The notes below the pieces were generated by a model, which was not told the origin of the DNA, made no database searches, and saw only the letters and a program-made list of their open reading frames with translations. From the IMG/VR virus record IMGVR_UViG_3300032321_001382: a DNA stretch of 56,245 bases. One strand, given 5' to 3'. Positions 4,841 to 52,962 of the stretch are shown in pieces (positions within the stretch are counted from its first letter, which is position 1; every line of letters starts with the position of its first letter). Source of the stretch: a virus. Taxonomy: Duplodnaviria; Heunggongvirae; Uroviricota; Caudoviricetes. Both the position numbers and the translations under genes were made by a program.

Positions 4841-5152
4841 ATGAATGTATTTAAACTAGAATCTAAAAATGATGTGCAAAAGATATTTAAATCGCACGAT
4901 GTAGACATTTATGTAGGAAAGGCTTTTGATGAAGAATCAAATAAACACTTCCTTATATTTAGCATACCAGTAATACCAGAAGCTGGAGTTCAACATATAC
5001 AATACCCCTTTGTATTTGATACGGAAAAGGAAAGAGATGATGTTTTCATACATATTGATGAAAATTACGCATCTGATTTTCTAGACAAATTAATTACTCA
5101 AATAGAAGAAAACAAAAAACAAGTTTCTAATGAAAGTAATATACAGAATTAG
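4841..5152 (+). CDS. Hypothetical protein
   Basis: 103-aa ORF. Confidence 0.8.
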   Translation: MNVFKLESKNDVQKIFKSHDVDIYVGKAFDEESNKHFLIFSIPVIPEAGVQHIQYPFVFDTEKERDDVFIHIDENYASDFLDKLITQIEENKKQVSNESNIQN

Positions 5153-5828
5153 TGATGGTGGATATAAAAAACAAAAGCCAGACTATATTACTAAAGTTGA
5201 TTGTTTTGAAAATGCTTTAAAACACTTCTATGATTTTTACATAATACAAGATGGAGAACTAAAAGATGATAATATAATATTTAATATGATTCGTTTAGCC
5301 CAAAAGTATAATGTAAAAGCAGAAAGGTCATTAGTTAGTATGGGTAATGGTGCTAGCACCTTTAATTTAGCACTAGATTATGCTTTGACCCTAGATGACA
5401 ATGAAATAGTATATTTTCTAGAGGACGACTATTTACATAGAGATGGGGCTAAATTAGCATTAGAAGATGCTTTTAAGCTACCAATTGATTATGTAACCCT
5501 ATACGACCATCCAGATAAATATATGAATCCCATAGATGGTGGAAATCCATTCTGCGAAGGTCTTAGTGAAAAAACTAGAGTTTATTGTGGTTTATTTTGC
5601 CATTATAAGATAACCAATAGCACTACAATGACATTTGCAGCAAAAGTAAGTACACTTAAAAGAGATGAGGCAATATTAAGGAAATGGACTAATGGTACTC
5701 ATCCTAATGACTTTGAAATGTTTAAAGAACTTAATATAGAAAGAAAATTAATATCATCAATTCCAGCATATTCAACGCATGGAGAATCACAATGGTTAAG
5801 TCCAATAATAAACTGGGAAAATATATGA
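5130..5828 (+). CDS. GT-A fold glycosyltransferase (GT2-like)
   Basis: IVYFLEDDYLH DxD-type motif, YVTLYDHPDKY and a STTMTF segment. Confidence 0.75.
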   Translation: MKVIYRISDGGYKKQKPDYITKVDCFENALKHFYDFYIIQDGELKDDNIIFNMIRLAQKYNVKAERSLVSMGNGASTFNLALDYALTLDDNEIVYFLEDDYLHRDGAKLALEDAFKLPIDYVTLYDHPDKYMNPIDGGNPFCEGLSEKTRVYCGLFCHYKITNSTTMTFAAKVSTLKRDEAILRKWTNGTHPNDFEMFKELNIERKLISSIPAYSTHGESQWLSPIINWENI

Positions 5829-6625
5829 AAACAAAGTTCGATATAAGTATATATCAAATAAGAAAGAAAGACGTAAGTAGCGCATTTGTAGTAAATGACC
5901 TTAGATTTGCTTTGTTCCCAAAAGACAATGCAATTACATCTAGTATAATAGAGGGTTGGCAATACGAGTCATATATGTTTGAGTTCTTATATAAAAATCA
6001 TATTAAAACACTTGGAAAGGATATAGTTGATATTGGTGGTAATAACGGAAACTTTGCAATAGACTTTGCTCACATGGTTGGGGATGATGGAAAGGTGCAT
6101 TCATTTGAACCACAAAGGTTAATATACTATCAATTATGTGGCAATGTATTTATTAATGGCTTAGACAATGTTTATTGTCATAACCTAGCTATTGGTAGCT
6201 GTGTTGATAAGGTTTATATTGAAACCCCAAATTACTTTGAAAAAGGATATGTAAACTTTGGTAATGTTAAAGTTGGTAAGAAGGGTGATTTGGTTGTGCA
6301 AGTACCATTAGACTCATTTGAAAATGATTTTAAAGATGTTGTATTCATAAAGATAGATGTACAAGGATATGAATTAAATGTAATTAATGGTGCAGTCAAT
6401 ACCATAAAAAAACATAGACCATACATTTTTGTAGAGTTTGAGGAAGATTTATTACAAGATGCTGGAACTAGTGAAAAGGAGCTTCAGGAAAAAATAGAAT
6501 CATTAGGATATATAGTTAAAAGATTCCATGATGGGATATTACATCAAACAACCAGTGGTAAATGCCTTGATTGTGTTTGTATACCAAAAGAGAAATTTGA
6601 AGAGTTTAATCACTTAATACCTTAG
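5825..6625 (+). CDS. FkbM-family SAM-dependent methyltransferase
   Basis: VDIGGNNG, VHSFEPQ and FIKIDVQGYE motifs; start moved to ATG 5825. Confidence 0.92.
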   Translation: MKTKFDISIYQIRKKDVSSAFVVNDLRFALFPKDNAITSSIIEGWQYESYMFEFLYKNHIKTLGKDIVDIGGNNGNFAIDFAHMVGDDGKVHSFEPQRLIYYQLCGNVFINGLDNVYCHNLAIGSCVDKVYIETPNYFEKGYVNFGNVKVGKKGDLVVQVPLDSFENDFKDVVFIKIDVQGYELNVINGAVNTIKKHRPYIFVEFEEDLLQDAGTSEKELQEKIESLGYIVKRFHDGILHQTTSGKCLDCVCIPKEKFEEFNHLIP

Positions 6626-6626
6626 T

Positions 6627-6830
6627 ATGATGTTACAATTAAATCCAATGATTCCAATTATAAGGAAATCTGACAATATGAAAGGGTATGCTTTTTTAAC
6701 CATTGACTATTCCCAAGAACATTATATATTATTTGTTTGTGCTATGGATAATGGAGATATATGGAGTTTGGATAATAGAGAAATATCAATTCAAGAAAAT
6801 ACATCACTGGGGCGTAAAATTGAAAAATAA
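6627..6830 (+). CDS. Conserved hypothetical phage protein (LQLNP...IDYSQE...N...GR)
   Basis: Pattern recalled from small phage proteins. Confidence 0.75.
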   Translation: MMLQLNPMIPIIRKSDNMKGYAFLTIDYSQEHYILFVCAMDNGDIWSLDNREISIQENTSLGRKIEK

Positions 6831-6831
6831 T

Positions 6832-7041
6832 ATGAAAACAGCATTTACAATTGTTTGGGAAGAATGTAACTTGGTTTTAGAAAAAGACGAATTTTATGAG
6901 TGGCTTCAAAAACATTCATTTGAATTAATACATTATGAAAAAGACTTTATATTAAAACTTATACAATATGTAAAAGAAAATACCGATAAAACAGAAATAG
7001 AAATATATAATAATTTTTTAAAAACACAAGCCTTAAAATAA
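6832..7041 (+). CDS. MKTA-family small protein
   Basis: Starts ATGAAAACAGCA like 1427 and 1643; track ORF 6703 re-started here. Confidence 0.75.
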   Translation: MKTAFTIVWEECNLVLEKDEFYEWLQKHSFELIHYEKDFILKLIQYVKENTDKTEIEIYNNFLKTQALK

Positions 7042-7042
7042 T

Positions 7043-7438
7043 ATGAAATTTAGAGCGACAATAAGCATAGACTATGATGATACAATAGTTTATCAAGACT
7101 TTCCAAATACTGGAACAATAAAGCCAAACGCGGTTGAGGTTATTAATAGACTTTATGATGAAGGTCACCATATTCTCATATGGACTTGTAGGGCTTTAGA
7201 AAATGTAAAAATAGCCAAAAGATACCTAATTGAATGTGGAGTAAGATTCCACCTAATTAATGAGAATTTACCAAGTAATATTGAAAAGTATGGTGGAGAT
7301 ACTCGTAAGATGTCTGCTGATATTTATATTGATGATAGACAACTGGGTGGAATACCAGAAGATTGGCTTGAAATTGAAAGAATGGTAAGAAATGATATAA
7401 TAAAGGCTGAAAAGATAAGAAAGGCTAAAAACAGATAA
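7043..7438 (+). CDS. Capless HAD-superfamily phosphatase
   Basis: Motif I DYDDT, motif II IWTCR, and K...ADIYIDDR motifs III/IV. Confidence 0.88.
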   Translation: MKFRATISIDYDDTIVYQDFPNTGTIKPNAVEVINRLYDEGHHILIWTCRALENVKIAKRYLIECGVRFHLINENLPSNIEKYGGDTRKMSADIYIDDRQLGGIPEDWLEIERMVRNDIIKAEKIRKAKNR

Positions 7439-7439
7439 T

Positions 7440-7697
7440 ATGAATGGTAAAATATACCCAATTGGCGATGCTTATGTAGTCCAAGATATAGAAAATGGGC
7501 AAAAATATGTAGTTCGTAAAGAAGATAGTGATTTAAGCTATGTGGTTGGCTCTGATGTCGTTTATAGGGTAGATAATGGATTTGCTTTAATACAAGAATG
7601 TGTAACCTCTGCACCAATACATAATATTAGTGTTGGCTGGATATGTCCTAGGTGCAATAAGGTCAATGCCCCACATAAGCTTAATTGCGATTGTTAA
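7440..7697 (+). CDS. Hypothetical protein with a C-terminal zinc ribbon
   Basis: GWICPRC...NAP...CDC. Confidence 0.8.
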   Translation: MNGKIYPIGDAYVVQDIENGQKYVVRKEDSDLSYVVGSDVVYRVDNGFALIQECVTSAPIHNISVGWICPRCNKVNAPHKLNCDC

Positions 7698-7748
7698 CAA
7701 AATTTTAACAGATATTTGTTATTTAATAAGACAATATGTGTACCTTTA
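7694..7748 (+). promoter_or_regulatory. TTAACA-N5-TTAACA box (7694-7710) plus near-consensus -7 element TACCTTTA (7741-7748)
   Basis: Same architecture as at 527, 12407 and 20596; upstream of ATG 7770. Confidence 0.65.
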
Positions 7749-7769
7749 TGTAAACAAAAACACACTAAA

Positions 7770-8153
7770 ATGAAAAAAGCTCTAAAAATTGATGTGGTTA
7801 ATCAAACAGTAACCAATATCTTAATTAATGACCTTGAAGACATTTACAAGGAAATAGGTAATGGATGTCAGCTATTCTGCTGTCCCATTAACTTTGACAA
7901 TGGAGATACCTTATATGCAGATGATGAATCCCTACTTAGGGAAAATGTAGAAGGATGCTTTATGATGGATAGCTGGTCTTATGCAATAGTTGGAAATGCT
8001 ATTATATTAGGAACCGATGATGAAGGAGAGTCTATAGATTGTAAATCTTCTATTATGGATATATATAAGAACCTTATATGGGGCGACAAAAGAGTTGCTG
8101 AAAAATATAGAGAGACTGCATTGTCTAGTACACCACAATTTATTTTTTGTTAA
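7770..8153 (+). CDS. DUF3846-like protein
   Basis: ALKID...DLEDIYKEIG...GDTLYADDESLL...IVGNAIILG...GES pattern; start moved to ATG 7770. Confidence 0.75.
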   Translation: MKKALKIDVVNQTVTNILINDLEDIYKEIGNGCQLFCCPINFDNGDTLYADDESLLRENVEGCFMMDSWSYAIVGNAIILGTDDEGESIDCKSSIMDIYKNLIWGDKRVAEKYRETALSSTPQFIFC

Positions 8154-8168
8154 TTTAATTTAATTTTT

Positions 8169-8543
8169 ATGAAAAAGCTATTATTAATCTCAATTTTATT
8201 TTTTTCTATTTTCAACCTAAATGCACAACATTATAGAAATTATGAAAGAAAACCAATACGTCATTATTATCGAGAACATATACACCCAGAACGACCTAAA
8301 ATAAATATTTTACCCATATTAGGTGCTATTGTTGCTACTGCTATAATAAGTAGTGAACTAAATGATTATGATGATTATAACTTAAACTCTCGTCAACTAA
8401 TGAGAAAACATTATTATCAAAATCAATTAGAATTACAAAGACTTGAATATCTAGAAAGACAATCTATTATTTTAGAAAGACAAAATTGTAATAAACAAAG
8501 GGGCTTTTTAGGTATTTTCCCTAAAAGACACCATAGGTTTTAA
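8169..8543 (+). CDS. Secreted or membrane hypothetical protein
   Basis: Signal peptide (MKKLLLISILFFSIFNLNA) and an internal hydrophobic segment. Confidence 0.75.
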   Translation: MKKLLLISILFFSIFNLNAQHYRNYERKPIRHYYREHIHPERPKINILPILGAIVATAIISSELNDYDDYNLNSRQLMRKHYYQNQLELQRLEYLERQSIILERQNCNKQRGFLGIFPKRHHRF

Positions 8544-8561
8544 TAATTAAAAAAATATTTT

Positions 8562-8843
8562 ATGGATTATGTAGTTGCTAGAGAATTATACAAGAAAAGT
8601 GTAGTAGATTTTAGTAAAGGCTGGAAAGTAGATTTAACAGACCACCAAATAAATACTATGATTAGCGTAATGCTACATAGAGATGGTATTATGAATGGCG
8701 GTAGTTTTGTAGAGGCTGTTGCTAATAATGACCTTTATGGTGCTATTACAAATGCTGATATAGAAAACTTTCAAAACCTTAAGTTGGTTACACTATGTTT
8801 TAAGAACAATCATATACATCCAATACCTAAAATAGATAAATAA
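8562..8843 (+). CDS. Hypothetical phage protein
   Basis: 93-aa ORF containing GGSFVEAVANNDL. Confidence 0.8.
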   Translation: MDYVVARELYKKSVVDFSKGWKVDLTDHQINTMISVMLHRDGIMNGGSFVEAVANNDLYGAITNADIENFQNLKLVTLCFKNNHIHPIPKIDK

Positions 8844-8849
8844 ACAAAA

Positions 8850-8923
8850 TCCTAAATAGCTCAGTTGGTTAGAGCATTTGACTGTTAATCAAAGGGTCGC
8901 TGGTTCGAGTCCAGCTTTGGGAG
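8850..8923 (+). tRNA. trnN: tRNA-Asn(GUU)
   Basis: Full cloverleaf: TCCTAAA/TTTGGGA acceptor, GCTC/GAGC D-stem, TTTGA-CT[GTT]AA-TCAAA, GCTGG-TTCGAGT-CCAGC; CCA not encoded. Confidence 0.97.
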
Positions 8924-8943
8924 CGAAAATAAATTAAATAAAT

Positions 8944-9519
8944 ATGAGCGGTTTACAAAAAAATCAAATGACTGGCACATTTGTCAACATCAAGGAAGGT
9001 TCTTTAGTTACAAAAGGAAAAGAAGGAAACTTAGAATCTTATGACTCTCTAGAGGGTATTATTGAAAAGGTAGAATTCCTTACAGAAGAGTACGAGGGTA
9101 AAAAAATAGAAAAAGCTAAATTCTACGTTAATGACATTGGTGAAATATTCATTTTGCAAATAAAGGTTAATAGTGGTTATTTTAGAGGATTGTGTAATTC
9201 ATTAGCTAGCTCTTCTGCCCCAAAAGATATGCTTAAAATAGTACCTTCTTTAAAAAAGGATGATAAGGGTAAGCCTAAATCAACTTGTTTTGTAGGTCAA
9301 AATGGTACATTCTTAAAACACGCTTTTACAAAAGATAATATGGGAGATTTACCAGATTTAGAAAAAGTAACATTTAAGGGAGAAGTTCAGTATGATAATA
9401 CCAAACAAATAGAATTTTGGAAAAATTGGCTTTTCAAAATATATAATTCAAATTCAAGAGTTATAGAAAAATCGGAAATTGATGAGGATGATGAATATAT
9501 TGATGATTTACCTTTCTAA
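8944..9519 (+). CDS. Putative single-stranded DNA-binding protein
   Basis: Beta-rich body with the acidic SSB-type tail DEDDEYIDDLPF. Confidence 0.65.
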   Translation: MSGLQKNQMTGTFVNIKEGSLVTKGKEGNLESYDSLEGIIEKVEFLTEEYEGKKIEKAKFYVNDIGEIFILQIKVNSGYFRGLCNSLASSSAPKDMLKIVPSLKKDDKGKPKSTCFVGQNGTFLKHAFTKDNMGDLPDLEKVTFKGEVQYDNTKQIEFWKNWLFKIYNSNSRVIEKSEIDEDDEYIDDLPF

Positions 9520-9530
9520 AAATAGAAAAT

Positions 9531-9971
9531 ATGAATACGGAAATAACATCAAAAAGAAAAGCTGTTATAGATGCTTTTGAAAAGGGTTATAGGGTTATAA
9601 ATAATATTGTAGAATATAAGGGCAGAACAAGAAAACTTCACCTTAGATTTAAAAAACAAAGTTGCTTATTGAAATATGCTACATTTGGGGTCAGAGATTC
9701 AAATGGTAAAAGGGTAGAAATTTCAGTTCACCATTTAGCCGCATATCAGAAGTATAAAAATTTCTTTATAAATGAAGAAAATTTTTTTGAGCAAAAGATG
9801 GTAGTAATGCATAAGGATGGAGATACATTAAATAATAATTTAGAAAACATATACATGGGAACTAGAATCGAGGTTGCTCAAAATAGATTAAAAAAATGGG
9901 AAGAAGAAAGAAAAATACATTCTGAGTGGGTAAATAATTTGATTTTAGAAGAAAAGCGCAAAAAAAAATAA
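9531..9971 (+). CDS. HNH endonuclease (HNH_3-like)
   Basis: VHHLAA...VMHKDGDTLNNNLENI..GT..E. Confidence 0.8.
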   Translation: MNTEITSKRKAVIDAFEKGYRVINNIVEYKGRTRKLHLRFKKQSCLLKYATFGVRDSNGKRVEISVHHLAAYQKYKNFFINEENFFEQKMVVMHKDGDTLNNNLENIYMGTRIEVAQNRLKKWEEERKIHSEWVNNLILEEKRKKK

Positions 9972-9976
9972 ATATT

Positions 9977-10393
9977 ATGGGAGTAAGTCCAAAACATTGG
10001 GGAAGGGAAGCGTGGAAATTTATACACTGGGTAGCATTAACATATCCAAATAATCCAACCGAAAAAGACAAAGAAAATTATTTAAAATTCTTCGAGTCTT
10101 TACAAGATGTATTGCCATGCGGTATATGTGCCGAACATTTTAGGCAAAATATGGAAAAAATGCCTATAAAGCTAGATAGTAATAGAGAACTATTTAACTG
10201 GACGGTTGATATACACAATGTCGTAAATGTACAAACTGACAAAAAAATACTTACATATGACCAAGCATTTGGAGAGGTTACAAGACAAAATAAAAAGATT
10301 AGCGATGAATTATTAAAGGGGATAGCTTTTTCTTCAGCTATTATAACGGTAATTACATTATTATCAAAGCAGTATGTTAAAAGAAAAAAATAG
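9977..10393 (+). CDS. Erv1/Alr-family FAD-dependent sulfhydryl oxidase with a C-terminal TM anchor
   Basis: WG..AW.FIH...YP, LPCGIC..HF (CxxC), LFNWTVDIHN.VN, then a hydrophobic helix and KRKK. Confidence 0.92.
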   Translation: MGVSPKHWGREAWKFIHWVALTYPNNPTEKDKENYLKFFESLQDVLPCGICAEHFRQNMEKMPIKLDSNRELFNWTVDIHNVVNVQTDKKILTYDQAFGEVTRQNKKISDELLKGIAFSSAIITVITLLSKQYVKRKK

Positions 10394-10433
10394 TTATATT
10401 TACGCCCTAGTGTGTTTCCTTAAAACGGAAATC

Positions 10434-10464
10434 GGGGCGTTGTTTCTACTTCTGCCCCTTTTTT
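10434..10464 (+). terminator. Rho-independent terminator-like hairpin
   Basis: GGGGCG (10434-39) pairs with TGCCCC (10453-58), followed by T6. Confidence 0.6.
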
Positions 10465-10487
10465 ATTGATATACCGAAAAATAATAT

Positions 10488-10495
10488 TAACTTTG
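10488..10495 (+). promoter_or_regulatory. Bacteroidota -7 element (TAACTTTG)
   Basis: TAnnTTTG 20 nt upstream of the HTH gene. Confidence 0.65.
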
Positions 10496-10515: not shown

Positions 10516-10755
10516 ATGTCACAAACGAAATTAGAATTATTACTTCAAGAGCGAGGGATGTCCCAAGGTGACTTAATGAGGCTTATTAGAGACAAGTCTG
10601 GATTTAAGATTGGAAGGGATAGAATTTCAAAAATTTGTACTGGTAGACTTAAAAACTATACACTAGAAACTGCGGTTATGATTAGCGAAGCTCTAGAGGT
10701 ACCAGTAGATGAAATCGTAGAATTAAAAGAAATAAGAAAGGTTAATAGACCATAA
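10516..10755 (+). CDS. XRE/Cro-type HTH transcription regulator
   Basis: KLELLLQERGMSQGDL...ISKIC.G...TLETA..ISEALEVPVDEIV. Confidence 0.9.
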   Translation: MSQTKLELLLQERGMSQGDLMRLIRDKSGFKIGRDRISKICTGRLKNYTLETAVMISEALEVPVDEIVELKEIRKVNRP

Positions 10756-10756: not shown

Positions 10757-11344
10757 GTGAGAAAATACGTAATTCCAGAGATATTTTTCAAATCTATTGC
10801 TGAAAAAGGGAAGTTGTATAGTCGAATTTGGTTTTATTGGTTAAGTGGATTTGTGGACGAACTATTTGAACCAGATTTTATAGAGAAACAAGAGAAGGAG
10901 TTTAAAATAAGCGAAATTAAAGAAATATACCATTTCGGTATACACTTCCTTCAGCAAGATTTTAAGATAATAGATGGCAAATCAAAAAAAAGTGTTACAA
11001 CACAAGAGCATAGAGATATGGCTATAGAAATCATAGAATATCTGAATAGCCGAGCAGAAACCACTTTTTCAACTAAATTAGGTTCTAATATAGAATTAAT
11101 ATGTGCAAGATTAAAAGAAGGTTATACAATATCAGATTTCAAATCAGTTATAGATAAAAAAGTTAAAGATTGGAAAGGTACAGATTGGGCTAAGTTCTTG
11201 AGACCCAATACCTTATTTGCAAAATCTAAAATAGAAAACTATTTAAATAGTAACAATAATGACAAACAATCAGCTAGTAAGTTCTCAAAATTCGCAGATT
11301 CAGTTGCTAAAGCAAAAACCATTATTGGAGTTCACAACAACTAA
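10757..11344 (+). CDS. Phage replication initiator-type protein with conserved phage C-terminal domain (Phg_2220_C)
   Basis: IIEYLN...F...I.ARL.EGYTI.DFK.VID.K...W.GT....FLRP.TLF..K.E.YLN. Confidence 0.85.
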   Translation: MRKYVIPEIFFKSIAEKGKLYSRIWFYWLSGFVDELFEPDFIEKQEKEFKISEIKEIYHFGIHFLQQDFKIIDGKSKKSVTTQEHRDMAIEIIEYLNSRAETTFSTKLGSNIELICARLKEGYTISDFKSVIDKKVKDWKGTDWAKFLRPNTLFAKSKIENYLNSNNNDKQSASKFSKFADSVAKAKTIIGVHNN

Positions 11345-12697: not shown

Positions 12698-12771
12698 GGA
12701 CTTTTAGCTCAGTTGGTTAGAGCATCTGACTCATAATCAGAGGGTCATTGGTTCAAGCCCAATAGAGTCCA
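12698..12771 (+). tRNA. tRNA with CAU anticodon, probably Ile2 (lysidine), less likely elongator Met
   Basis: GGACTTT/AGAGTCC acceptor, TCTGA-CT[CAT]AA-TCAGA, ATTGG-TTCAAGC-CCAAT, discriminator A; lacks initiator features. Confidence 0.93.
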
Positions 12772-12804
12772 CATTATGTATTATAAACAATAAAAAAAAC
12801 AAAA

Positions 12805-25428: not shown

Positions 25429-25553
25429 TATTCTGCCTTTTTTTGTTTGTTTTTCAAGTAAAAATAATACCCAAAACCAGTTAATACAGTTAATACTGCA
25501 AGTACTTGAATCTCTTTTGTAAGAGCAAATTCCTTTATTTTAGTTGTTCCCAT
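25428..25553 (-). CDS. 41-aa single-TM peptide (MGTTKIKEFALTKEIQVLAVLTVLTGFGYYFYLKNKQKKAE)
   Basis: Hand-translated; stop/start overlap with both neighbours. Confidence 0.75.
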   Translation of the reverse strand: MGTTKIKEFALTKEIQVLAVLTVLTGFGYYFYLKNKQKKAE

Positions 25554-25711
25554 TATTTTTTATTTAAAGAATATATAATAAACCCGAATATTGATAAAAT
25601 TAATATAACTGGAAGTCCATCCAATATTCCAGCTGATTTAACATCTGGTCTAACTTGAACACAAACTCCATTAATATCCTTTTCGTAGAATGGGGGTTGA
25701 GACCTACACAT
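25553..25711 (-). CDS. 52-aa tail-anchored peptide (MCRSQPPF...GVCVQV...LPVILILSIFGFIIYSLNKK)
   Basis: Hand-translated; two Cys, a C-terminal TM and KK. Confidence 0.75.
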   Translation of the reverse strand: MCRSQPPFYEKDINGVCVQVRPDVKSAGILDGLPVILILSIFGFIIYSLNKK

Positions 25712-41079: not shown

Positions 41080-41487
41080 ATGAAAAAAGTAGAAAAAGTT
41101 AAAAAAGAGAAAGGACTACAAACAGCAGATTTGCCAACAGCTATACAACAAGATATATCTGGCTTGCAAAAATTAATCGTTAAATACAACGAAGCTTGTG
41201 ATACTTATGAAAAATTAGACGAAATAAATGACAAAACAGAAGCTCAGTTAGATGCACTAGAAGATGAGATTTCAGAAGTAGAAGATTCGGTAGTAGAAAA
41301 AATAAACGCAATTGAAACCCCAAAGGTAGGAACCGATACTAAAGAAACTAAAGAAACTAATGAAACTAAAGAGAATAAAGTATCTGATAAGAAGTCTGAA
41401 AAAGACAATTCAGTTGGATGGCTTGTTTTTGGTGGAATAGCTTTAATAGTAACCCTAGGTGCTGTAAATGTTTTTAAAAATAAATAA
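41080..41487 (+). CDS. Tail-anchored acidic coiled-coil membrane protein
   Basis: C-terminus GWLVFGGIALIVTLGAVNVFKNK; paralog of 44819 and 45348. Confidence 0.85.
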   Translation: MKKVEKVKKEKGLQTADLPTAIQQDISGLQKLIVKYNEACDTYEKLDEINDKTEAQLDALEDEISEVEDSVVEKINAIETPKVGTDTKETKETNETKENKVSDKKSEKDNSVGWLVFGGIALIVTLGAVNVFKNK

Positions 41488-41513
41488 TATTTTTTTACAT
41501 ATGCATTTATATT

Positions 41514-41538
41514 AGGCTGTTAAAAACACAGCCTTTTT
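41514..41538 (+). terminator. Rho-independent terminator
   Basis: AGGCTGT-TAAAAAC-ACAGCCT followed by TTTT. Confidence 0.75.
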
Positions 41539-41556
41539 GCATAAAAAAAGATTTGC

Positions 41557-41874
41557 ATGAAGTCTATTGAAGGTTTAAGAATGTTATTAGAGGAAGACGA
41601 ATTGGGAAAACATAAGATTGAAGAAGTTGTAAAAAAAAGGATTAATGGATTGGATGAGTTGGCTGAAGACGGAGATTTAGAGGCTCAAGAATATGCTAAA
41701 GGACTTAGAAATCTATTAAGAGAAAGCTTTAAACATGGTGGAAAAATTAGTAAATTAGAGGAACAAGAAAAGACTTATATGAATTTGCTTAGAAAAACAC
41801 AAAACCAAGCCAATAGGACTTTGATTATAAAAAAATTAGAAGACATCGACAAACAAAAAAAATCTTTCAAATGA
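41557..41874 (+). CDS. Small two-module protein split by FKHGG
   Basis: An acidic module and a basic module either side of the motif. Confidence 0.75.
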   Translation: MKSIEGLRMLLEEDELGKHKIEEVVKKRINGLDELAEDGDLEAQEYAKGLRNLLRESFKHGGKISKLEEQEKTYMNLLRKTQNQANRTLIIKKLEDIDKQKKSFK

Positions 41875-44777
41875 AAAGAGTTAGAAAATATACATATTTA
41901 CCAAAAGAAGAAATTGAGGTAATTGAAACAAAAAGTGGCGAAACCATTAAAAGTAAAGAAATACTAGATGGTAACTATGTAAAATCAAAGTCTGCTGCTA
42001 AAAAAGTAGTTAAAAGTAAATATGCTAAAGGTGGTAAGGTAGGTGTAAAAGAGTATAAAATATACCCTATGAAACCTACTGGTGTAAAAGGAATGATAAC
42101 AAATGATTATGATAATATGGAAACATTTGTTGGAACTGAAGATGAAGCAATAACAAAAGCAAAAGAAATAGCAAATTCAAATCCTAATTTTGTAAGAGTT
42201 GAAGTAAAATTGCGATTAAAAACCAAAACCAATACCGTTGGTATAGTTGATGGTCAAAATAAACAATATGCTAAAGGTGGTAAAACGCCAATAGTAAGAA
42301 CACAATTTGAAGAAGAAGAATTCGAATATGCTGATGGTGGTAGAATTAAAGTTGGAACTTTCAACGAAGAACAACTTATAAATAAAGAAGATAAAAAAGC
42401 TGTTGAAAAAGCAAAAGAAGAAAGTGGATTGAAATATGTTGAAACAAAAATTATTAAGAAAGGTGGCAAGATGTATATGGAAGTTTATTTAATTCCAAAT
42501 GAAGAATATTATAATTCATCAAAGTTTTCCGATGGCGGTATGATGGCTAAAGGTGGAATAACAAAGTACACTACTAATGAAATGATGGATATAATTTATA
42601 AAGATTTAGGAATTGTTGAAATGAAAAAATATACATCGGAAGATGGTTATATTGATATAGATGAATTAGCTAAAAAAGCTGGATTTAGACGCTCATATAT
42701 AATAGGGAAAAATGATTATTGGAGAAAAGATATAACTGATGATTTTGCTGAAGGCGGTATCCCAAGTCAAATACCAAGTAGGATTGTAAGGAATGCAGCA
42801 AAAGCAGCTAAAGAACATAATGAGGATGTAAAAATATATTATAGTAATAAAGATAAAGAGTTCCACTATTCTATAGTTAGAGCCATCAGATATAATGATG
42901 TTTTAGTTGGAGTTGTTTCACCAAGTGGAGAAGTAAAAAATGACGATAACTTTTTTTATAATCAAGAAGATTATAATAATTATATTTCCAGAAGGGATGA
43001 AGTGTTAGAACAAACTAATAAGATGGCTGATGGCGGAAATGTAACAGACAAAGAAGTTGCTGATAGTAATGTTCAAATGTTAAAAAGCAATATTAAATCT
43101 ATTAAGCATCATGCAGAAGAGTTAGAACACGCTATTAAGGACAATTCAGAAGTAGAAGGATGGGTTTTAGCTAAAGCCGATAGGGCTGCAACTGCTATGT
43201 CTGATATTACCCACTACCTAGATGGCAGAAAGATGGCTGGTGGTGGAATGGTTGCTGGATACTATTATAAAGACAAAGGTGGCAGTGAGTTAAGATTTGT
43301 AGGACCAGATAGCAAAGATGAAAACAAGGGCATATTTAAAGATGGAGACAAATATTTTAACAAGTCATATGATGATTTCGAAGAAGAGAAAGAAAACAAA
43401 TCATTTTGGTTTGGAAATGGAGGTTATATGCCTAAAGGAAAATCAAGAAAACTATCAGTGTCTGAAAAGGCGGAAGAAATGGTTGGTAGAAATACTTGGA
43501 ATACATTAGATGCCGTAGAAAAAGAAGGCGTTATTGGCGAGTTAATCGCTGATGGAGCATTAGCCATAACTATGGATACTGGCGGTATAATTGATGCCAA
43601 TGATTGGAATAGCTCATCTACCGATGAAAAAATATATGCATTAAAAAAGGCTGGTTATTCTTTTAATATGGCATCAGAAATGAGCTTATTACCATATGAA
43701 GAAGTTCCAATGTGGGTAAGAGAAGATTTTAAAAAGCACGTTATAATCATCGGAGATTATCACATCCATTTAAATAATTTACCAAAAAGCTTCTATGGAG
43801 TTGATATGGGTAAATTCTTGGTTTTCAATGGTAAAGAAGAATTATTACATTCTAGCGACACTTTAGAAGAGGCAAAAGCATGGGCTACTGAAGAAGCAAG
43901 ATTAGATAAAGAAGATTCACAAGATTACGAAATGGTTTCTGATTGTTGCGGTGCTGCAAAAGGAGAATATACCGATATATGCCCAGAATGTAATGAACAT
44001 TGTTCTTGGGAAAAATCATATTTTGCAGAAGGTGGTGTTACCGAAGCAGTTAAGTTTAAGGTTGTATATAAAATTAAGGATGCCGAACCAAAAGAGAAAG
44101 TTTTTGATAACGCTGAAAAAGCTGAGTTTTTCTTAGAAACAATCAAAGAAGATGACGACATAGAATCTGCAAACTTAGTTGAGGTAAAACCAGAAAAAAA
44201 GGCAAAACCAACAAATCTATTTGCTGCAGCTAAACCAGCTACGACAACAGCTGCTAGTAAAAAAGGCAAAGAAGATGTTTTTGTTTCAGGAATAGCTGAT
44301 GAAATAGCTCGATATGACGCATTAAAGGCTATAATTAAGAATGCAGAATCTGAACAATCACTTATTGGAGATAGGTTAAAAGAAGTTGGGGTAGATAAGT
44401 TTTTAGAACTTTATGAGTTGAGAAGAAGAAATCCAGATACATTTAACCTAGCCGATGAGGACAAGAAAATTATGTTTATCGTAATGGATAAGTATAAAAA
44501 AGTAGAACCAGAGAAGGCTGCAATGTTGGAGAATTATAGTGGTTTATTAGAAACAATAACTACTTATAAATTCAATCCAGAATTACTAGACAGAACTGGT
44601 GAAATAGTAAGTAGGTTAATAATGGAAAGTTCAGAACTAACAGATGAAGAAAAAGCTAACTTAATAATTGCAGAAACTAAGATGCAAATTCAAAAAGGAG
44701 CAATTGATAGATTATTGGACTATGATAATCCAGCACAAATATTCACATTAATTGAACCAATATTGGCATTGAAATAA
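41871..44777 (+). CDS. 968-aa mosaic polyprotein-like protein with 11 [FYM]xxGG motifs
   Basis: YAKGG x2, YADGG, FSDGG, MAKGG, FAEGG x2, MADGG, MAGGG, FGNGG and MDTGG delimit modules, including a helical WV..K module and a CCGA...CPEC.EHC zinc module. Confidence 0.92.
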   Translation: MKRVRKYTYLPKEEIEVIETKSGETIKSKEILDGNYVKSKSAAKKVVKSKYAKGGKVGVKEYKIYPMKPTGVKGMITNDYDNMETFVGTEDEAITKAKEIANSNPNFVRVEVKLRLKTKTNTVGIVDGQNKQYAKGGKTPIVRTQFEEEEFEYADGGRIKVGTFNEEQLINKEDKKAVEKAKEESGLKYVETKIIKKGGKMYMEVYLIPNEEYYNSSKFSDGGMMAKGGITKYTTNEMMDIIYKDLGIVEMKKYTSEDGYIDIDELAKKAGFRRSYIIGKNDYWRKDITDDFAEGGIPSQIPSRIVRNAAKAAKEHNEDVKIYYSNKDKEFHYSIVRAIRYNDVLVGVVSPSGEVKNDDNFFYNQEDYNNYISRRDEVLEQTNKMADGGNVTDKEVADSNVQMLKSNIKSIKHHAEELEHAIKDNSEVEGWVLAKADRAATAMSDITHYLDGRKMAGGGMVAGYYYKDKGGSELRFVGPDSKDENKGIFKDGDKYFNKSYDDFEEEKENKSFWFGNGGYMPKGKSRKLSVSEKAEEMVGRNTWNTLDAVEKEGVIGELIADGALAITMDTGGIIDANDWNSSSTDEKIYALKKAGYSFNMASEMSLLPYEEVPMWVREDFKKHVIIIGDYHIHLNNLPKSFYGVDMGKFLVFNGKEELLHSSDTLEEAKAWATEEARLDKEDSQDYEMVSDCCGAAKGEYTDICPECNEHCSWEKSYFAEGGVTEAVKFKVVYKIKDAEPKEKVFDNAEKAEFFLETIKEDDDIESANLVEVKPEKKAKPTNLFAAAKPATTTAASKKGKEDVFVSGIADEIARYDALKAIIKNAESEQSLIGDRLKEVGVDKFLELYELRRRNPDTFNLADEDKKIMFIVMDKYKKVEPEKAAMLENYSGLLETITTYKFNPELLDRTGEIVSRLIMESSELTDEEKANLIIAETKMQIQKGAIDRLLDYDNPAQIFTLIEPILALK

Positions 44778-44818
44778 GAATTTTAATATATATTTAGTAA
44801 AAATAAAAAAAATAAAAC

Positions 44819-45337
44819 ATGAACTGGAGAAAAAAAATTAAAGAAAACGGGTTTGAATTGAGCAGTTATTCAAAAAAAATTGAATCTAGTGCAAATCAAT
44901 TAGACAACTTAGAAAAAGAGAAAAAAGAGTTGATAAAGAGTTTAAAAACAGCACCAGAAGAAGAGCTAGAAGGAATTGGTGATGAAATTGTAAAATTGGA
45001 AGAAACAATAGAGGAATTAGACTCAAATCTATGTTCCAACATTGATAAGTATGATAACAATAGAGAAAAGTATAAGCTTTTAGGTGAAAAATTAAAGGCA
45101 TCAAGAGAAGCAGCAGCTAAAAAACCAAAAGCTAATGCAGAGCCGCAGCCAGAGCCTCAGCCAGAGCCTCAGCCAGTGGTGCAGCCACAACCTGAGCCTC
45201 AAAATGAGCCGCAACAGTCTAAACAACAGTTAGAATCTCAAACAGAGCCTAAAAAAAGTAAAGGTGGATGGGTTTTAGCTGGAGCTTTATTAGTAGTTGG
45301 GTCAATAATTGGCATTAATTTATTAAGAAAAAAATAA
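44819..45337 (+). CDS. Tail-anchored coiled-coil protein with a PEPQ repeat linker
   Basis: EPQPEPQP repeats; C-terminus GWVLAGALLVVGSIIGINLLRKK. Confidence 0.88.
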   Translation: MNWRKKIKENGFELSSYSKKIESSANQLDNLEKEKKELIKSLKTAPEEELEGIGDEIVKLEETIEELDSNLCSNIDKYDNNREKYKLLGEKLKASREAAAKKPKANAEPQPEPQPEPQPVVQPQPEPQNEPQQSKQQLESQTEPKKSKGGWVLAGALLVVGSIIGINLLRKK

Positions 45338-45347
45338 AAGAGAAAAT

Positions 45348-45986
45348 ATGAAATATTTAGAGATATTAAAACAAAGGGATTTAAGTATACAAAACCTTCC
45401 AAAAGTTTTGCAGAAAAAAATACAAGAGCTTGATTATCAATACAATGAATTAAAAAACCTAGAAAGTTTTGGAGAGCTAGATGAAGATGAATTAGAAGAT
45501 ATTGAAATCGTAAAAGAAAAAATAGACGAATTGGATTCTCATATATCACATAAGGTTAAAATATTTGACCAAACTAAATATAATGAGAAGCTAGCTAAGA
45601 TAAGCAAGATGACTGAGCTTAAAAAAGCTGCAAAAAATGAAGTTGAAGAGGTTAAGGTTGAACAAGAAACAGTTACAAAAGTAGTTGCAGCTCCAGTAGT
45701 TCAACCAGTAGTAGCTGAACAAGGTAACCAAATTGGTAACACAGCTCAAATTCAAGAAGCTTATGTACCAACTCCAGTGCCAGAAGCTGTACCAAGAGAA
45801 TATGTACAACCATCAGAACTTGTACAAGAATCTGTACAACCTTTAAATGAACAATACGAAGAGGATGAGTTTGAAAGAAAGGGTACAGGTAATCCTAAAA
45901 AAATGACAACTGGTCTTATTCTAATGGGTGTAGGTGCATTTTTCTTAACATGGGGCGCTGTAAATTTTTTTAAAAGTAGAAGATAA
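45348..45986 (+). CDS. Tail-anchored coiled-coil protein
   Basis: V/P/Q/E-rich linker; C-terminus LILMGVGAFFLTWGAVNFFKSRR. Confidence 0.88.
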   Translation: MKYLEILKQRDLSIQNLPKVLQKKIQELDYQYNELKNLESFGELDEDELEDIEIVKEKIDELDSHISHKVKIFDQTKYNEKLAKISKMTELKKAAKNEVEEVKVEQETVTKVVAAPVVQPVVAEQGNQIGNTAQIQEAYVPTPVPEAVPREYVQPSELVQESVQPLNEQYEEDEFERKGTGNPKKMTTGLILMGVGAFFLTWGAVNFFKSRR

Positions 45987-45995
45987 TATTAATAT

Positions 45996-46274
45996 ATGTA
46001 TAAAATAACCCAATATACCAAAAACAAAGCCAGTGACTATAATGTTATTGTTAAGCCTAGTAAGGTTGAGGGTAAAAAAATTGATGTCTTTAATAAAAAA
46101 GGCGAAAAGTTAGCCTCAATAGGGGCTATTGGATATGGTGATTATCCTACTTTTTTGAAGCAGAAAGGCGAAAAATACGCCGAGGAAAGGAGAAGGTTGT
46201 ACAAAATAAGACACGAAAGTGACAGACACAAAAGAGGGTCAGCTGGGTGGTATGCCGATAAGCTATTGTGGTAA
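45996..46274 (+). CDS. DUF5754-like basic protein
   Basis: S...GKK.DV...G..GY.DY...RR..Y..RH...S.G.....LLW. Confidence 0.7.
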   Translation: MYKITQYTKNKASDYNVIVKPSKVEGKKIDVFNKKGEKLASIGAIGYGDYPTFLKQKGEKYAEERRRLYKIRHESDRHKRGSAGWYADKLLW

Positions 46275-46400
46275 CGTCATCAGTATATGATAATCTTGGT
46301 TTTTGGGTATTTTATGTCCAATTATTGGTTTTCATAGTATTTTTTCTATTTGTTATTAGGTTTTTTTTAAATATTTTTAAAGAACATAAAAAGAAAAGAA

Positions 46401-46673
46401 ATGAAAAAATTATTTAATTGGATTAGTGGGTTTTTCTCTTCAGAGAGTGGAACATCTAGTAAAAGACTTGTAGGTATCGTAGGAGCTTTTATGCTTTATT
46501 GGACTTTGTATGAAAATGCAAAAACAGAGTCTCATGTAGCCCCAGCTGATTCGTTAGTTTGGGGTGTTGTTGCTTTAGTAATGGTAGCTTTAGGCTTAAC
46601 CACTATTGAAAGTGTAGCTACATTGGTACAAAAATTTAAAGGAACTAAAACAGAAGAAGATGGCAACAAGTAA
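46401..46673 (+). CDS. Two-TM holin-like protein
   Basis: SSKR followed by two TM helices; in the lysis cassette. Confidence 0.6.
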   Translation: MKKLFNWISGFFSSESGTSSKRLVGIVGAFMLYWTLYENAKTESHVAPADSLVWGVVALVMVALGLTTIESVATLVQKFKGTKTEEDGNK

Positions 46674-46986
46674 AAAATCAATAGCGGATAAGGTAACAGA
46701 TACCGCTACGGAAAATCTTAAGCTTCCAGTTACATTTAAAGAGTTTTCAAAGAATCCAGTGGTGGCAACTCTTTTTATAGTCTTATTGGCTATTGGTGGA
46801 TTATATGTGGATATACGTAGTACATTTCAAAATCAAGCTAAAAGCCAAGATGTTCGTATTGAAAAGGTAGAAGGTAGATTAGATTTAGTTCAAGAGGCTT
46901 TAAGAAGAAGTGATTCTTTAAATGCAGTTTCTACTACTAAACTATCAACATTACAACAATTAGGAAAAATACAAGAAATTAAATAA
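46660..46986 (+). CDS. Single-TM coiled-coil protein (holin/lysis accessory)
   Basis: LP.TFKEFSKNP..A.LF..L.AIG.LY.D followed by a coiled coil. Confidence 0.6.
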   Translation: MATSKKSIADKVTDTATENLKLPVTFKEFSKNPVVATLFIVLLAIGGLYVDIRSTFQNQAKSQDVRIEKVEGRLDLVQEALRRSDSLNAVSTTKLSTLQQLGKIQEIK

Positions 46987-47321
46987 TGAAAAAAATATTA
47001 TCTTTTTTACCAATTATTTTAATGTTAAATGCTTGTCAATTTGTTGAAAGTCAAACAATTAGTGATGAACAAAAGAAAGACCAAGAATTTATTGAATTAA
47101 TAAAAAATATAGAAATAACAAAACAACAAAGTATCATTTCGCAAGATAATGCTACCAAACAAGAAAATAAGATAGTAAATGGCGCAGTAGAGAAAATAGT
47201 TACCTTAAAAGAAGAAGTTAAAACTCTTAAAAGCGAATTAAATGAAAAGAATCAAGTGCTTAATGGTATTATTAATGATACTGGCAGTAAATTCAAGTTA
47301 CTCCCAATATCCAATAATTAA
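46986..47321 (+). CDS. Lipoprotein coiled coil (spanin-like)
   Basis: Lipobox LNAC at residues 15-18; heptad region. Confidence 0.6.
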   Translation: MKKILSFLPIILMLNACQFVESQTISDEQKKDQEFIELIKNIEITKQQSIISQDNATKQENKIVNGAVEKIVTLKEEVKTLKSELNEKNQVLNGIINDTGSKFKLLPISNN

Positions 47322-47637
47322 AAAGATAGGTAAGGATTCTCTTATCTTAATGACATTAAAGCAAGGTGATGATATAAACAAATCGTTTACTCAGTACCAA
47401 AATAAATTAGATTCTTTAAAAGATTCGGTTGTCGCTAAAAAGTTTTTAATAGATAGCTTAAATATTGAATTTAATAAACTAGATAAAAAAAGAGAAGAAT
47501 ATAAATTAAGATATGAAGAAAGGTTAAATATGCCAATTAATACAAAGTACCAATATCATGATGATGGTTGGGATTTTGCACAAAAAATGGTTTTAATTGG
47601 TGTAATTGTTCTTCAATTCTTTACAATAAAAAGGTAG
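47242..47637 (+). CDS. Signal-peptide coiled-coil protein with C-terminal TM (spanin-like)
   Basis: Overlaps the previous gene by 80 nt; same layout as 18133. Confidence 0.55.
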   Translation: MKRIKCLMVLLMILAVNSSYSQYPIIKKIGKDSLILMTLKQGDDINKSFTQYQNKLDSLKDSVVAKKFLIDSLNIEFNKLDKKREEYKLRYEERLNMPINTKYQYHDDGWDFAQKMVLIGVIVLQFFTIKR

Positions 47638-47640
47638 AAT

Positions 47641-47946
47641 ATGTTTAGTTATCCTAATTTATGGGTGATGGTATTTGGTATATTGCTAGGGCTTAGTATC
47701 ATTTTGACATCAGTTTATTTTGTAAACAAAATGTTTGTAAACGATACAAAAGATGTACTTGTAAGGTTTATAATACTTGTATTTACAGCTTTAGTAGCAC
47801 TTTTTATAGTAGACAAGGTTATTGCATTTAGGATTAAACTATTGGCAGATGATATTAATAAAGAACTTTTTGATTTAATAAAAACATTAATATTAATGAT
47901 TTTTAGTTATTATTTTGGAACAAAAAACAAAACAGAAAATGAGTAA
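47641..47946 (+). CDS. Three-TM membrane protein (holin-like)
   Basis: Three hydrophobic segments ending in YYFG; precedes the endolysin. Confidence 0.65.
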   Translation: MFSYPNLWVMVFGILLGLSIILTSVYFVNKMFVNDTKDVLVRFIILVFTALVALFIVDKVIAFRIKLLADDINKELFDLIKTLILMIFSYYFGTKNKTENE

Positions 47947-48759: not shown

Positions 48760-48760
48760 T

Positions 48761-49147: not shown

Positions 49148-49182
49148 ATAATAAAAAATATTGGGAAAACCAAAAAAAATGT

Positions 49183-49190
49183 TAAATTTG
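49183..49190 (+). promoter_or_regulatory. Bacteroidota -7 element (TAAATTTG)
   Basis: 20 nt upstream of ATG 49211. Confidence 0.6.
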
Positions 49191-49210
49191 AGCAACAAAC
49201 AAACACAAGG

Positions 49211-49783
49211 ATGGCAAACACAAATCTAACTACCATAGTTGATACCTATGGATGTATGTCTAATTATCAAGAAATGAAAGCATTTTTTGTTAATCCTACT
49301 AACGCTAGGGGTATACAAGATGCTTTGTCTAAATATGGTACTCCAAAAGAAAATAGACCATCTACTAATTCTGGGTTTGGTCTTTTCAAAAAAAATTGGG
49401 GTTGGACAGATTATTGTGATTGGCAAAATATTGGAAAGTTTTATCAATATGCTAAACTTTCCGTTCAGTTTCCTATCTTAACAACTCCGCAAACAGATTG
49501 TACTAAGGTATCTTCGGCTATTTTAGCGTTAAATTCACAATTAGCAAATGTTGCAAATGTAAAAGATGCTAATATTAAAACTGCACTAACAGACGCTATT
49601 AATGACAAATTAGCAGAGTATCAATCATTTAATGTAGTTAACGATTGCGACAATTTAGTTAAAAATCAATCTTATTCATTAACAACTGGGGCTACATCTA
49701 AAACTGCCATTTATATATTTGGTGGCGCAGCTGTGCTTATAGGCTTGTTTTATGCTATAGCTGTATCAAGAAAAAATAATTAA
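49211..49783 (+). CDS. Tail-anchored protein with 4 conserved Cys (paralog of 52324)
   Basis: Colinear similarity to 52324-52962; C-terminal TM and RK. Confidence 0.88.
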   Translation: MANTNLTTIVDTYGCMSNYQEMKAFFVNPTNARGIQDALSKYGTPKENRPSTNSGFGLFKKNWGWTDYCDWQNIGKFYQYAKLSVQFPILTTPQTDCTKVSSAILALNSQLANVANVKDANIKTALTDAINDKLAEYQSFNVVNDCDNLVKNQSYSLTTGATSKTAIYIFGGAAVLIGLFYAIAVSRKNN

Positions 49784-49786
49784 CAT

Positions 49787-50398: not shown

Positions 50399-50419
50399 TA
50401 ATATAAAAGTGAAAATAAA

Positions 50420-50914: not shown

Positions 50915-50915
50915 T

Positions 50916-51296: not shown

Positions 51297-51299
51297 GAA

Positions 51300-52323: not shown

Positions 52324-52962
52324 ATGGCAAATACGACAGAAATAATAGACGCAGCAAAAAGTTTAGGTGGATGTAAGCCGCAAGAAAGCGCTAAAATGGC
52401 TAGTTTTTTCAGCGACCCAGATAATACTCAAGCAATAGCTGAGGCGTATGATAAATTTGGGGGTTATCCACCAGCCAATCGTCAATCTTATCATACTGGA
52501 GTAGGATTTCTTGGGAAGTGGCACGACTTCTGCGACTATCAACCAATCTATGATTTTTATAACTATGCTAAAATTGCTGTAGATTTCCCAAAGATTACTG
52601 CTATGCAGTCTAATTGTTATCAAATAAAGTCAGCCCTTGTTGGATTAGAGGCTGTAAAAGCCAATGCATTAAATAAAAATGATGCTTCTATACTAAATGC
52701 TATCGAGACCAAAATAAGCGAGTATAATGCCATTTATGCGTCTTTAGCTTGTGACCAATATATACTTAATCAAGAAAAATCTCAATTAGAAGCGGCTACT
52801 TTAAGAGAACAACAAGCTGCTGCTGCTTTGCAAGCTGATGCCTTTGATAAGGCTAGTGGTAATACCCCTACAACTGGTTCAAAAACTGGTACTTATGTAC
52901 TTTATGGGTTTGTAGGATTAAGCGCTATCGTATTCTTGACTGTTATCCTTAAAAAAGACTAA
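52324..52962 (+). CDS. Tail-anchored protein with 4 conserved Cys (paralog of 49211)
   Basis: GGCK, DFCD, SNCY and LACD align with YGCM, DYCD, TDCT and NDCD; C-terminal TM and KK. Confidence 0.88.
   Translation: MANTTEIIDAAKSLGGCKPQESAKMASFFSDPDNTQAIAEAYDKFGGYPPANRQSYHTGVGFLGKWHDFCDYQPIYDFYNYAKIAVDFPKITAMQSNCYQIKSALVGLEAVKANALNKNDASILNAIETKISEYNAIYASLACDQYILNQEKSQLEAATLREQQAAAALQADAFDKASGNTPTTGSKTGTYVLYGFVGLSAIVFLTVILKKD

Follow-up and report, generated by a model that had tools for sequence, protein, structure and literature searches.

An Erv/ALR-family sulfhydryl oxidase gene maintained in a lineage of large bacterial viruses

A stretch of 56,245 nucleotides from a virus of the Caudoviricetes (IMG/VR record IMGVR_UViG_3300032321_001382; hereafter, the window) encodes a protein of the Erv/ALR family of flavin adenine dinucleotide (FAD)-dependent sulfhydryl oxidases, which we call Erv. 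We propose, with a probability of about 0.6, that Erv oxidises cysteine-rich phage proteins at the inner face of the host membrane before lysis. A 118,093-bp scaffold begins with the window, which makes up its first 56 kb and has the same coordinates; scaffold positions 1-74316 were read.

Erv is a member of the Erv/ALR family

The features of the gene and of its product are as follows:

9977..10393, + strand: Erv/ALR-family FAD sulfhydryl oxidase gene, 138 residues with an ATG start, assigned by Pfam, phmmer, a structural model and Foldseek
9998..10027, + strand: predicted flavin-site residues W8, G9, W13 and H17 of helix 1, invariant in a 42-sequence alignment and aligned with those of mimivirus R596 and Arabidopsis Erv1 (AtErv1)
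10118..10129, + strand: predicted CxxC active site, C48-G-I-C51, at the start of helix 3, invariant, placed after the invariant L46-P47 and aligned with the CxxC of R596 and AtErv1
10214..10228, + strand: predicted flavin-binding motif H80-N81-V-V83-N84 of helix 4, invariant and aligned with the HN-VN motif of R596 and AtErv1
10310..10393, + strand: predicted tail anchor, one C-terminal transmembrane helix (about residues 112-129) and a short basic tail, from hydropathy and the model

The initial annotation of this DNA had recognised the family by three groups of motifs, WG-W-H, CGIC and W-HN-VN, and all of them are present: W8-G9, W13 and H17 in the first group, C48-G-I-C51 in the second, and W75 plus H80-N81 and V83-N84 (nucleotides 10214-10228) in the third. 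It had also proposed a search with the Evr1_Alr hidden Markov model. Against this profile (PF04777) Erv scored 81.3 bits (E 6.7e-23), with profile positions 1-86 of 93 covered, where the curated cutoff is 27.6 bits; given this score, a chance origin of the motifs is far outstripped. Among solved structures, phmmer ranked mimivirus R596 best (E 1e-15), together with Arabidopsis Erv1, yeast Erv2p and Erv1, and pB119L of African swine fever virus (ASFV); the E-values ranged from 1e-15 to 5e-12 across R596, AtErv1, Erv2p and pB119L.

The structural predictions point in the same direction. An AlphaFold model of Erv, built on 42 relatives, reached a mean predicted local distance difference test (pLDDT) score of 90.7, and the top 26 Foldseek matches of this model in the PDB were all Erv-family cores, those of Erv1, Erv2, pB119L and R596 included, with target-normalised template-modelling (TM) scores of 0.8-0.9 and root-mean-square deviations (rmsd) of 1.3-2.0 Å. 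The alignment of the 42 relatives reaches down to about 40% identity, and in it W8, G9, W13, H17, Y23, P27, L46, P47, C48, C51, P63, W75, H80, N81, V83, N84 and K89 are invariant. By profile, predicted fold and invariant catalytic residues, the open reading frame is a clear member of the Erv/ALR family.

As modelled, the protein is a four- or five-helix bundle with a single FAD-proximal CxxC and without a shuttle disulfide. The open reading frame specifies exactly two cysteines, C48 and C51, and the same holds for the close family, where a shuttle disulfide on a flexible arm was not found, only these two cysteines being present. Many viral Ervs carry only the FAD-proximal disulfide (PMC3509050), so the phage protein still belongs to the family without a shuttle. 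We infer that the gene encodes a functional, compact sulfhydryl oxidase, with predicted FAD binding and oxidase activity.

The gene is fixed in a lineage of bacterial viruses

The genome that carries Erv is that of a bacterial virus, not of a eukaryotic virus or a chimera. Its GC content is about 30%, nearly all genes are densely packed on one strand, and the window holds two tRNA genes. Phage-type genes include a Phg_2220_C initiator, an XRE regulator, an M15 endolysin, a DUF1064 Holliday junction resolvase and polyvalent-protein domains, with small PHROG matches to a tail-fibre family (phrog_12032) and a head-closure family (phrog_218). Between the phage and the giant-virus contigs discussed below, no gene was found in common besides Erv.

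Two regulatory signals were informative about the host. A Shine-Dalgarno-like motif was present in only 3 of 93 genes, and the motif TAnnTTTG occurred at 4.0 per kb in intergenic DNA vs 0.69 per kb in coding DNA (about 6-fold), mostly 23-46 nucleotides before start codons. The scarcity of the first and the intergenic enrichment of the second fit a Bacteroidota-type host. The Erv lineage consists of uncultured bacterial viruses with large genomes (about 118-124 kb) of low GC content, and their regulatory signals suggest hosts of the Bacteroidota type. Among 185,579 species genomes we found one relative only, on a phage-like 10.5-kb contig in an Ignavibacteria metagenome-assembled genome (MAG; contig L010, JBEICW010000069.1). 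This contig, with the order Erv, HTH, Phg_2220_C, probably stems from a phage and ended up in the MAG by binning; as evidence on the host it is weak at best.

Erv is conserved in this lineage together with its surroundings. About 30 close homologues of equal length, 56-88% identical, were found in metagenomes, and on contigs from ENA, JGI, Logan and NCBI the gene order is Erv, HTH_26, Phg_2220_C, DUF4494, DUF3127, glycosyltransferases and polyvalent protein. More than 10 independent assemblies, made with different assemblers, share the order Erv, HTH, replication initiator. Two more distant clades have kept it as well, one at 46% identity, seen on more than 79 contigs, the other at 53% identity. 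For a check free of selection on Erv itself, contigs were retrieved through the HTH neighbour, by identity of its protein sequence. Erv lay directly upstream of HTH in 10/10 of these contigs with enough upstream DNA, and the gene preceding Erv differed among them, being a C5 methylase, an N6/N4 methylase or an HNH gene. As Erv always stands before HTH while the preceding gene varies, it is a fixed gene bordering a variable island.

The ratio of nonsynonymous to synonymous substitution rates (dN/dS) of Erv was 0.07-0.17 among close relatives, and 0.11 for the sole pair with unsaturated dS. Base composition is even across the Erv locus and its junctions and matches the rest of the genome. Erv is a lineage-fixed, maintained gene under purifying selection.

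Erv ends in a predicted tail anchor

The C-terminal transmembrane helix of the initial annotation was recovered as a single C-terminal hydrophobic helix at about residues 112-129. In the predicted model, a long helix covers residues 110-137, and the sequence KQYVKRKK follows the hydrophobic helix directly. A hydropathy scan of the 42 relatives found a single C-terminal hydrophobic helix in all except one (P0048), followed by a tail with a net charge of +1 to +5. Such an anchor suggests that the enzyme is bound to a membrane and that its catalytic domain would be kept in the cytoplasm.

Erv is not the only protein of this kind in the genome. At least ten window proteins, Erv among them, end in a Gly-rich transmembrane helix and then Lys or Arg:

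starts 41080, 44819, 45348, 46268, 46401, 49211, 52324 and 53183 (within 41080-53566), start 25553 (25553-25711), and Erv: tail-anchored window proteins

The window proteins at 47242, 50916 and 51300 have a comparable C-terminal helix plus an N-terminal one.

Candidate substrates and a model for disulfide formation

If Erv oxidises phage proteins, the genome offers plausible substrates. A fibre gene of 3913 residues, at scaffold position 68252 onward (L014:14719-20783), has 160 cysteines in its first 2021 residues (7.9%), where the background of the window proteins is 1.04%. The cysteine-rich part consists of Gly/Asn/Ser-rich repeats. Several small anchored proteins encoded downstream, near the fibre gene, have 2 or 4 cysteines. 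Two tail-anchored proteins of the window are candidate substrates by comparison of paralogues:

49211..49783, + strand: tail-anchored protein with C15, C69, C97 and C146, candidate substrate
52324..52962, + strand: tail-anchored paralogue with C17, C70, C98 and C143, candidate substrate

The two proteins are 37% identical (E 4e-31), and all four cysteines are aligned. Between their genes lies that of a 191-residue N-anchored protein (window 51713-52288) with C52-E-I-C55 and two more cysteines; it had no family match, and it could be a client or an adaptor. The only other CxxC protein besides this one (CEIC) is a probable zinc-ribbon-like protein of 85 residues.

In our model, the tail anchor would keep the catalytic domain at the inner membrane of the host, on the cytoplasmic side, where Erv would accept electrons from paired cysteines in freshly synthesised phage proteins. 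These electrons would pass through FAD to oxygen, so that disulfides would form before lysis in a bacterial cytoplasm that is normally reducing. As clients we consider most likely the tail-anchored phage proteins with paired conserved cysteines; the extremely cysteine-rich fibres encoded further along the genome are candidates as well. Such chemistry appears feasible in a bacterial cytoplasm, since yeast Erv1p supplies oxidising equivalents for disulfides in the cytoplasm of Escherichia coli in the CyDisCo system (PMC8601162). The initial annotation had put forward a disulfide pathway of the virus's own that serves virion assembly in the cytoplasm; such a pathway may exist, and plausible substrates for it were found.

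Several observations weigh against this model. The initial annotation had suggested a search for a thioredoxin or glutaredoxin partner, and no Thioredoxin, Glutaredoxin or DsbA Pfam match was recognised among the proteins scanned (scaffold 1-74316); the poxvirus and ASFV pathways do use partners. Erv ends a methylase/HNH region beside the replication module and is not part of a structural operon, and the fibre is 58 kb away, so that little in the genome map ties it to the proposed clients. The fibre cysteines could also oxidise spontaneously in oxic water after lysis. Finally, the positive-inside rule alone would favour the opposite orientation of Erv, given its basic tail and the neutral or acidic flank of its helix, a point that we take up below.

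Alternative roles of Erv

Erv might act mainly on host thiols, such as those of the thioredoxin system or of redox-sensitive enzymes, or make hydrogen peroxide at the membrane. Its effect would then be to reprogramme or disable the infected cell, or to exclude competing phages, and not to fold phage proteins. Such a role would suit a gene that sits among early-type genes (DNA methylases, HNH, XRE regulator, replication initiator) and not structural ones, that has no recognised dedicated partner or adjacent client gene, and that in relatives has counter-defence genes near it (Acb2/Tad1-like in L005, Gad2 in L008). However, the genome is unusually rich in cysteine-rich phage proteins that would need oxidation, and an Erv with only a buried FAD-proximal disulfide is usually selective and not a general thiol oxidant. 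Moreover, characterised viral Ervs serve viral protein folding (PMC3509050). We consider action on the host unlikely.

The second alternative concerns the side of the membrane. With the basic tail in the cytoplasm, the Erv domain would lie outside, as a periplasmic oxidase that supplements or bypasses the host DsbA/DsbB. The net charge of the tail agrees with this orientation, as do the 15 residues before the helix, which are mostly neutral or acidic in the close Erv family, and the many N-anchored phage proteins that carry 2 or 4 cysteines would expose their domains on the outer side of the membrane. Nevertheless, Erv has no signal peptide or twin-arginine motif, and a cofactor-binding bundle of about 110 residues would have to cross the membrane without one; FAD loading occurs in the cytoplasm. 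In addition, a helix within about 10 residues of the C-terminus is the layout of a post-translational tail anchor, and it is shared by the giant-virus homologues, a group whose characterised disulfide pathways are established to be cytoplasmic. A periplasmic Erv thus seems quite unlikely to us, and we favour oxidation of phage proteins on the cytoplasmic face.

A broader proposal, which we hold to be improbable, is that Erv is no isolated import but one component of an assembly toolkit resembling that of giant viruses, in a very large bacterial virus that makes or reshapes a membrane. The toolkit would comprise the tail-anchored Erv, a dozen or more tail- or signal-anchored small proteins, an FtsK/HerA-type ATPase, a jelly-roll-like protein and a virion-type lytic transglycosylase, and the small FtsK/HerA-type ATPase would stand in for a recognisable large terminase. 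If this were true, the lineage would be the counterpart, among viruses of bacteria, of those giant viruses that contain a membrane, and the presence of a tail-anchored Erv in both would go back to a common ancestor or to an old exchange of genes between large DNA viruses of bacteria and of eukaryotes.

It is very improbable that Erv is an evolutionary passenger that came from a eukaryote or giant virus and has no function in the phage today: its nearest relatives outside the lineage are indeed on giant-virus contigs and the family was not found in the sampled genomes of the linked phylum, but purifying selection is strong, the catalytic residues are invariant, the position is fixed through clades diverged to 46% identity, and the base composition matches the genome. 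A chimeric assembly of giant-virus and phage DNA, which the initial annotation had named among the findings that would undo its claim and for which nothing speaks beyond the eukaryote-virus affinity of the protein, is for practical purposes ruled out by the recurrence of the same gene order in the independent ENA, JGI, Logan and NCBI assemblies, the uniform composition, and the mere 5 nucleotides between the HNH stop and Erv.

Relatives of Erv in giant viruses

That Erv/ALR oxidases are typical of eukaryotes and of large eukaryotic viruses, as the initial annotation had stated, agrees with the literature (PMC3509050) and with our database searches. A single-protein search of IMG/VR returned two giant-virus MAGs only, and an alignment search returned 276 loci that encode relatives, none of them from this phage lineage. 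The best 80 of the 276 were at most 53% identical, came mostly from giant-virus MAGs, and shared no further gene with the phage. Among predicted viral structures, every named match was a giant-virus sulfhydryl oxidase.

Outside the phage lineage, the best sequence matches of Erv are thus the proteins of giant-virus MAGs and mimivirus R596 (PDB 3GWN/3TD7), with which it has the Erv fold in common. The Ervs of giant-virus MAGs are 37-53% identical to the phage protein and similar in length (130-175 residues). A single C-terminal transmembrane helix like that of phage Erv is present in 76 of 79 of the IMG/VR homologues, which are mostly from giant-virus MAGs, so that the phage enzyme has a giant-virus architecture. 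In contrast, the hosts of these viruses are eukaryotic and their contigs hold no other gene in common with the phage, and R596 possesses an additional domain at its C-terminus as well as a CX9C shuttle disulfide (PMC3509050), both absent from phage Erv.

The initial annotation had suggested a phylogeny against homologues from nucleocytoplasmic large DNA viruses (NCLDV) and from eukaryotes, of which the NCLDV part was run. In this tree the phage Ervs, together with a few unlabelled metagenomic sequences, stood apart from the giant-virus rows, with a modest support of 86% in the Shimodaira-Hasegawa-like approximate likelihood ratio test (SH-aLRT); the tree is unrooted and without eukaryotic sequences, and says nothing on the direction of transfer. 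Some metagenomic proteins of 200-300 residues have two or three Erv stretches (L009:9001-9768, P0033, P0035 and P0036). The tandem-domain Erv on a TARA contig (L009) lies among giant-virus-like genes, RNase III, DnaJ and TBP-like.

We also looked for the family in bacteria and in deposited phages. PF04777 was present in 1/401 sampled genomes of the phylum linked by the Ignavibacteria MAG, the match itself being on the phage-like contig, and was absent from the 400 others and from all 14 control genomes. Recent capture from a host was rejected on the absence from those 400 genomes. No PHROG family matched Erv at E 1e-3 or better. A tblastn search of 50,697 deposited phage records found only Mollyvirus and a Pinkberry virus, both weak and both non-phage entries, and when 25 kb of window sequence were compared with phages by megablast, only tRNA-sized matches appeared. 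In the literature searched there was no report of an Erv-family oxidase in a bacteriophage; the automatic annotation of JGI names one homologue 'Erv1 / Alr family'.

Comparison with known disulfide-forming systems

Two characterised oxidases are close to the role that we propose. ASFV pB119L (PDB 3GWL) and vaccinia E10R are small viral Ervs with only the FAD-proximal CxxC, like phage Erv, and the fold of pB119L matches the phage model with a target-normalised TM score of 0.88-0.90 and an rmsd of 1.6 Å, at an identity of only about 27%. Both oxidise viral proteins on the cytoplasmic side of the membrane, which is what phage Erv would do, but their hosts are eukaryotic. The partners of E10R are A2.5L and G4L, and that of pB119L is pA151R. 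While the vaccinia and ASFV oxidases use these partners, none was recognised for phage Erv in scaffold 1-74316.

The cellular enzymes Erv1/ALR and Erv2 (PDB 2HJ3, 3W4Y, 4E0H, 1JR8 and 1OQC) have the same fold, CxxC position and flavin-site residues as phage Erv. Cellular Erv enzymes also carry a structural disulfide. They differ from phage Erv in that a flexible arm bears a second pair of cysteines, the shuttle (PMC3509050), whereas the phage protein has only its two cysteines and a tail anchor.

In bacteria, two systems invite comparison. CyDisCo combines yeast Erv1p with a disulfide isomerase, and its Erv oxidises folding proteins in the bacterial cytoplasm with oxygen as the sink (PMC8601162); it is, however, artificial, with a soluble enzyme and an added isomerase, whereas phage Erv is natural and predicted to be membrane-anchored, and no isomerase was recognised for it. 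Bacterial DsbA/DsbB yield the same product, disulfides in exported or envelope proteins, but with an unrelated fold, quinone chemistry and in another compartment. No Dsb-like protein was found in the phage within scaffold positions 1-74316.

Phage particles are assembled in the reducing bacterial cytoplasm, and some phages have disulfide-linked virion proteins. To our knowledge, how and when these disulfides form has largely not been addressed, and the virus-encoded disulfide pathways that we know of have so far been described for eukaryotic large DNA viruses. A phage Erv oxidase would be the natural equivalent of what CyDisCo achieves by engineering and would extend viral disulfide pathways to bacterial viruses. 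The present genome offers a clean case, with a fixed and selected gene, a giant-virus-like tail anchor and a fibre of about 8% cysteine. It raises the questions of whether Erv binds flavin and oxidises phage proteins, which side of the membrane it faces, and whether phages and giant viruses have exchanged the gene. A compact oxidase adapted to bacteria, for making disulfide-bonded proteins, could result.

Neighbouring genes and expression signals

The initial annotation had placed Erv between an HNH gene and an XRE regulator, and both neighbours were found, upstream and downstream, respectively:

9531..9971, + strand: HNH_3 endonuclease gene, variable upstream neighbour (Pfam HNH_3 E 2.3e-6; PHROG HNH families)
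10434..10464, + strand: terminator-like GC hairpin and U-run, 3' of the Erv stop (RNA fold)
10488..10495, + strand: TAACTTTG, Bacteroidota-type -7 promoter motif (TAnnTTTG) upstream of the HTH gene, read from the sequence
10516..10755, + strand: HTH_26/XRE regulator, conserved downstream neighbour (Pfam HTH_26 E 4.1e-8)
10757..11344, + strand: Phg_2220_C replication-initiation protein, conserved downstream neighbour (Pfam E 7e-27; phrog_428 E 2e-28)

The HTH_26/XRE protein is 94-99% identical among close relatives. Bacteroidota-type promoters had been ascribed to this locus; the motif does precede the XRE gene, and none of Erv's own was found upstream of Erv, which starts 5 nucleotides past the HNH stop. 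The RNA fold of 10394-10470 had an energy of -17.5 kcal/mol (z -2.6 vs shuffles), and a simple scan for the terminator consensus did not call the hairpin, whose loop is too long for it. With the hairpin after Erv and TAnnTTTG before XRE, Erv probably ends one transcription unit and XRE starts the next.

Upstream of Erv, at about 5100-9971 of the window, comparison with four related contigs (L003, L005, L094 and L095) revealed a swap site, which in relatives contains two C5 methylases, or N6/N4 methylases (538-589 residues), or an HNH endonuclease. In the same early region, relatives carry counter-defence genes of the Acb2/Tad1-hairpin family (L005:6272-6601) and of the Gad2 family (L008:11021-11521). 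The Erv-replication block is bracketed by a tRNA-Asn(GTT) gene at 8850-8924 and a tRNA-Met(CAT) gene at 12698-12772.

Putative virion and envelope genes

No HK97-fold capsid protein, portal or large terminase was recognised within scaffold 1-74316, nor was a large terminase with a nuclease domain in these 74 kb. At scaffold 55564-57239 (L014:2031-3706), the gene of a 286-residue protein, whose C-terminus is basic and AT-hook-like, precedes that of a 270-residue ATPase; the former gene begins inside the window (55564-56244). The ATPase is of the DUF87/HerA/Zot P-loop type (25.8 bits vs a cutoff of 23.2), and its look-alike clusters are labelled as tailed phages. Neither this ATPase nor an open reading frame of 370 residues had a tblastn match among deposited phages.

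After a gap of 450 bp comes a 238-residue protein (scaffold 57694-58410; L014:4161-4877), for which more than 2,149 homologous clusters were counted (identity about 70-93%) and which is the most widely conserved gene examined. Its model has a moderately confident beta-sandwich core, for which the fold search ranked capsid jelly-rolls no higher or lower than carbohydrate-binding modules and pilins (Z 5-6), and its matches in BFVD were of low TM score. Beyond it, the scaffold encodes small membrane proteins in a long run, and an SLT transglycosylase. Taken together, the ATPase, the 238-residue protein, the run of membrane proteins and the transglycosylase may recall internal-membrane phages, although the evidence is mixed.

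Finally, the window encodes a PAP2-family lipid phosphatase (53948-54583), with more than 375 homologous clusters of the phage group. Such an enzyme is unusual in phages, and it might act on host envelope lipids.

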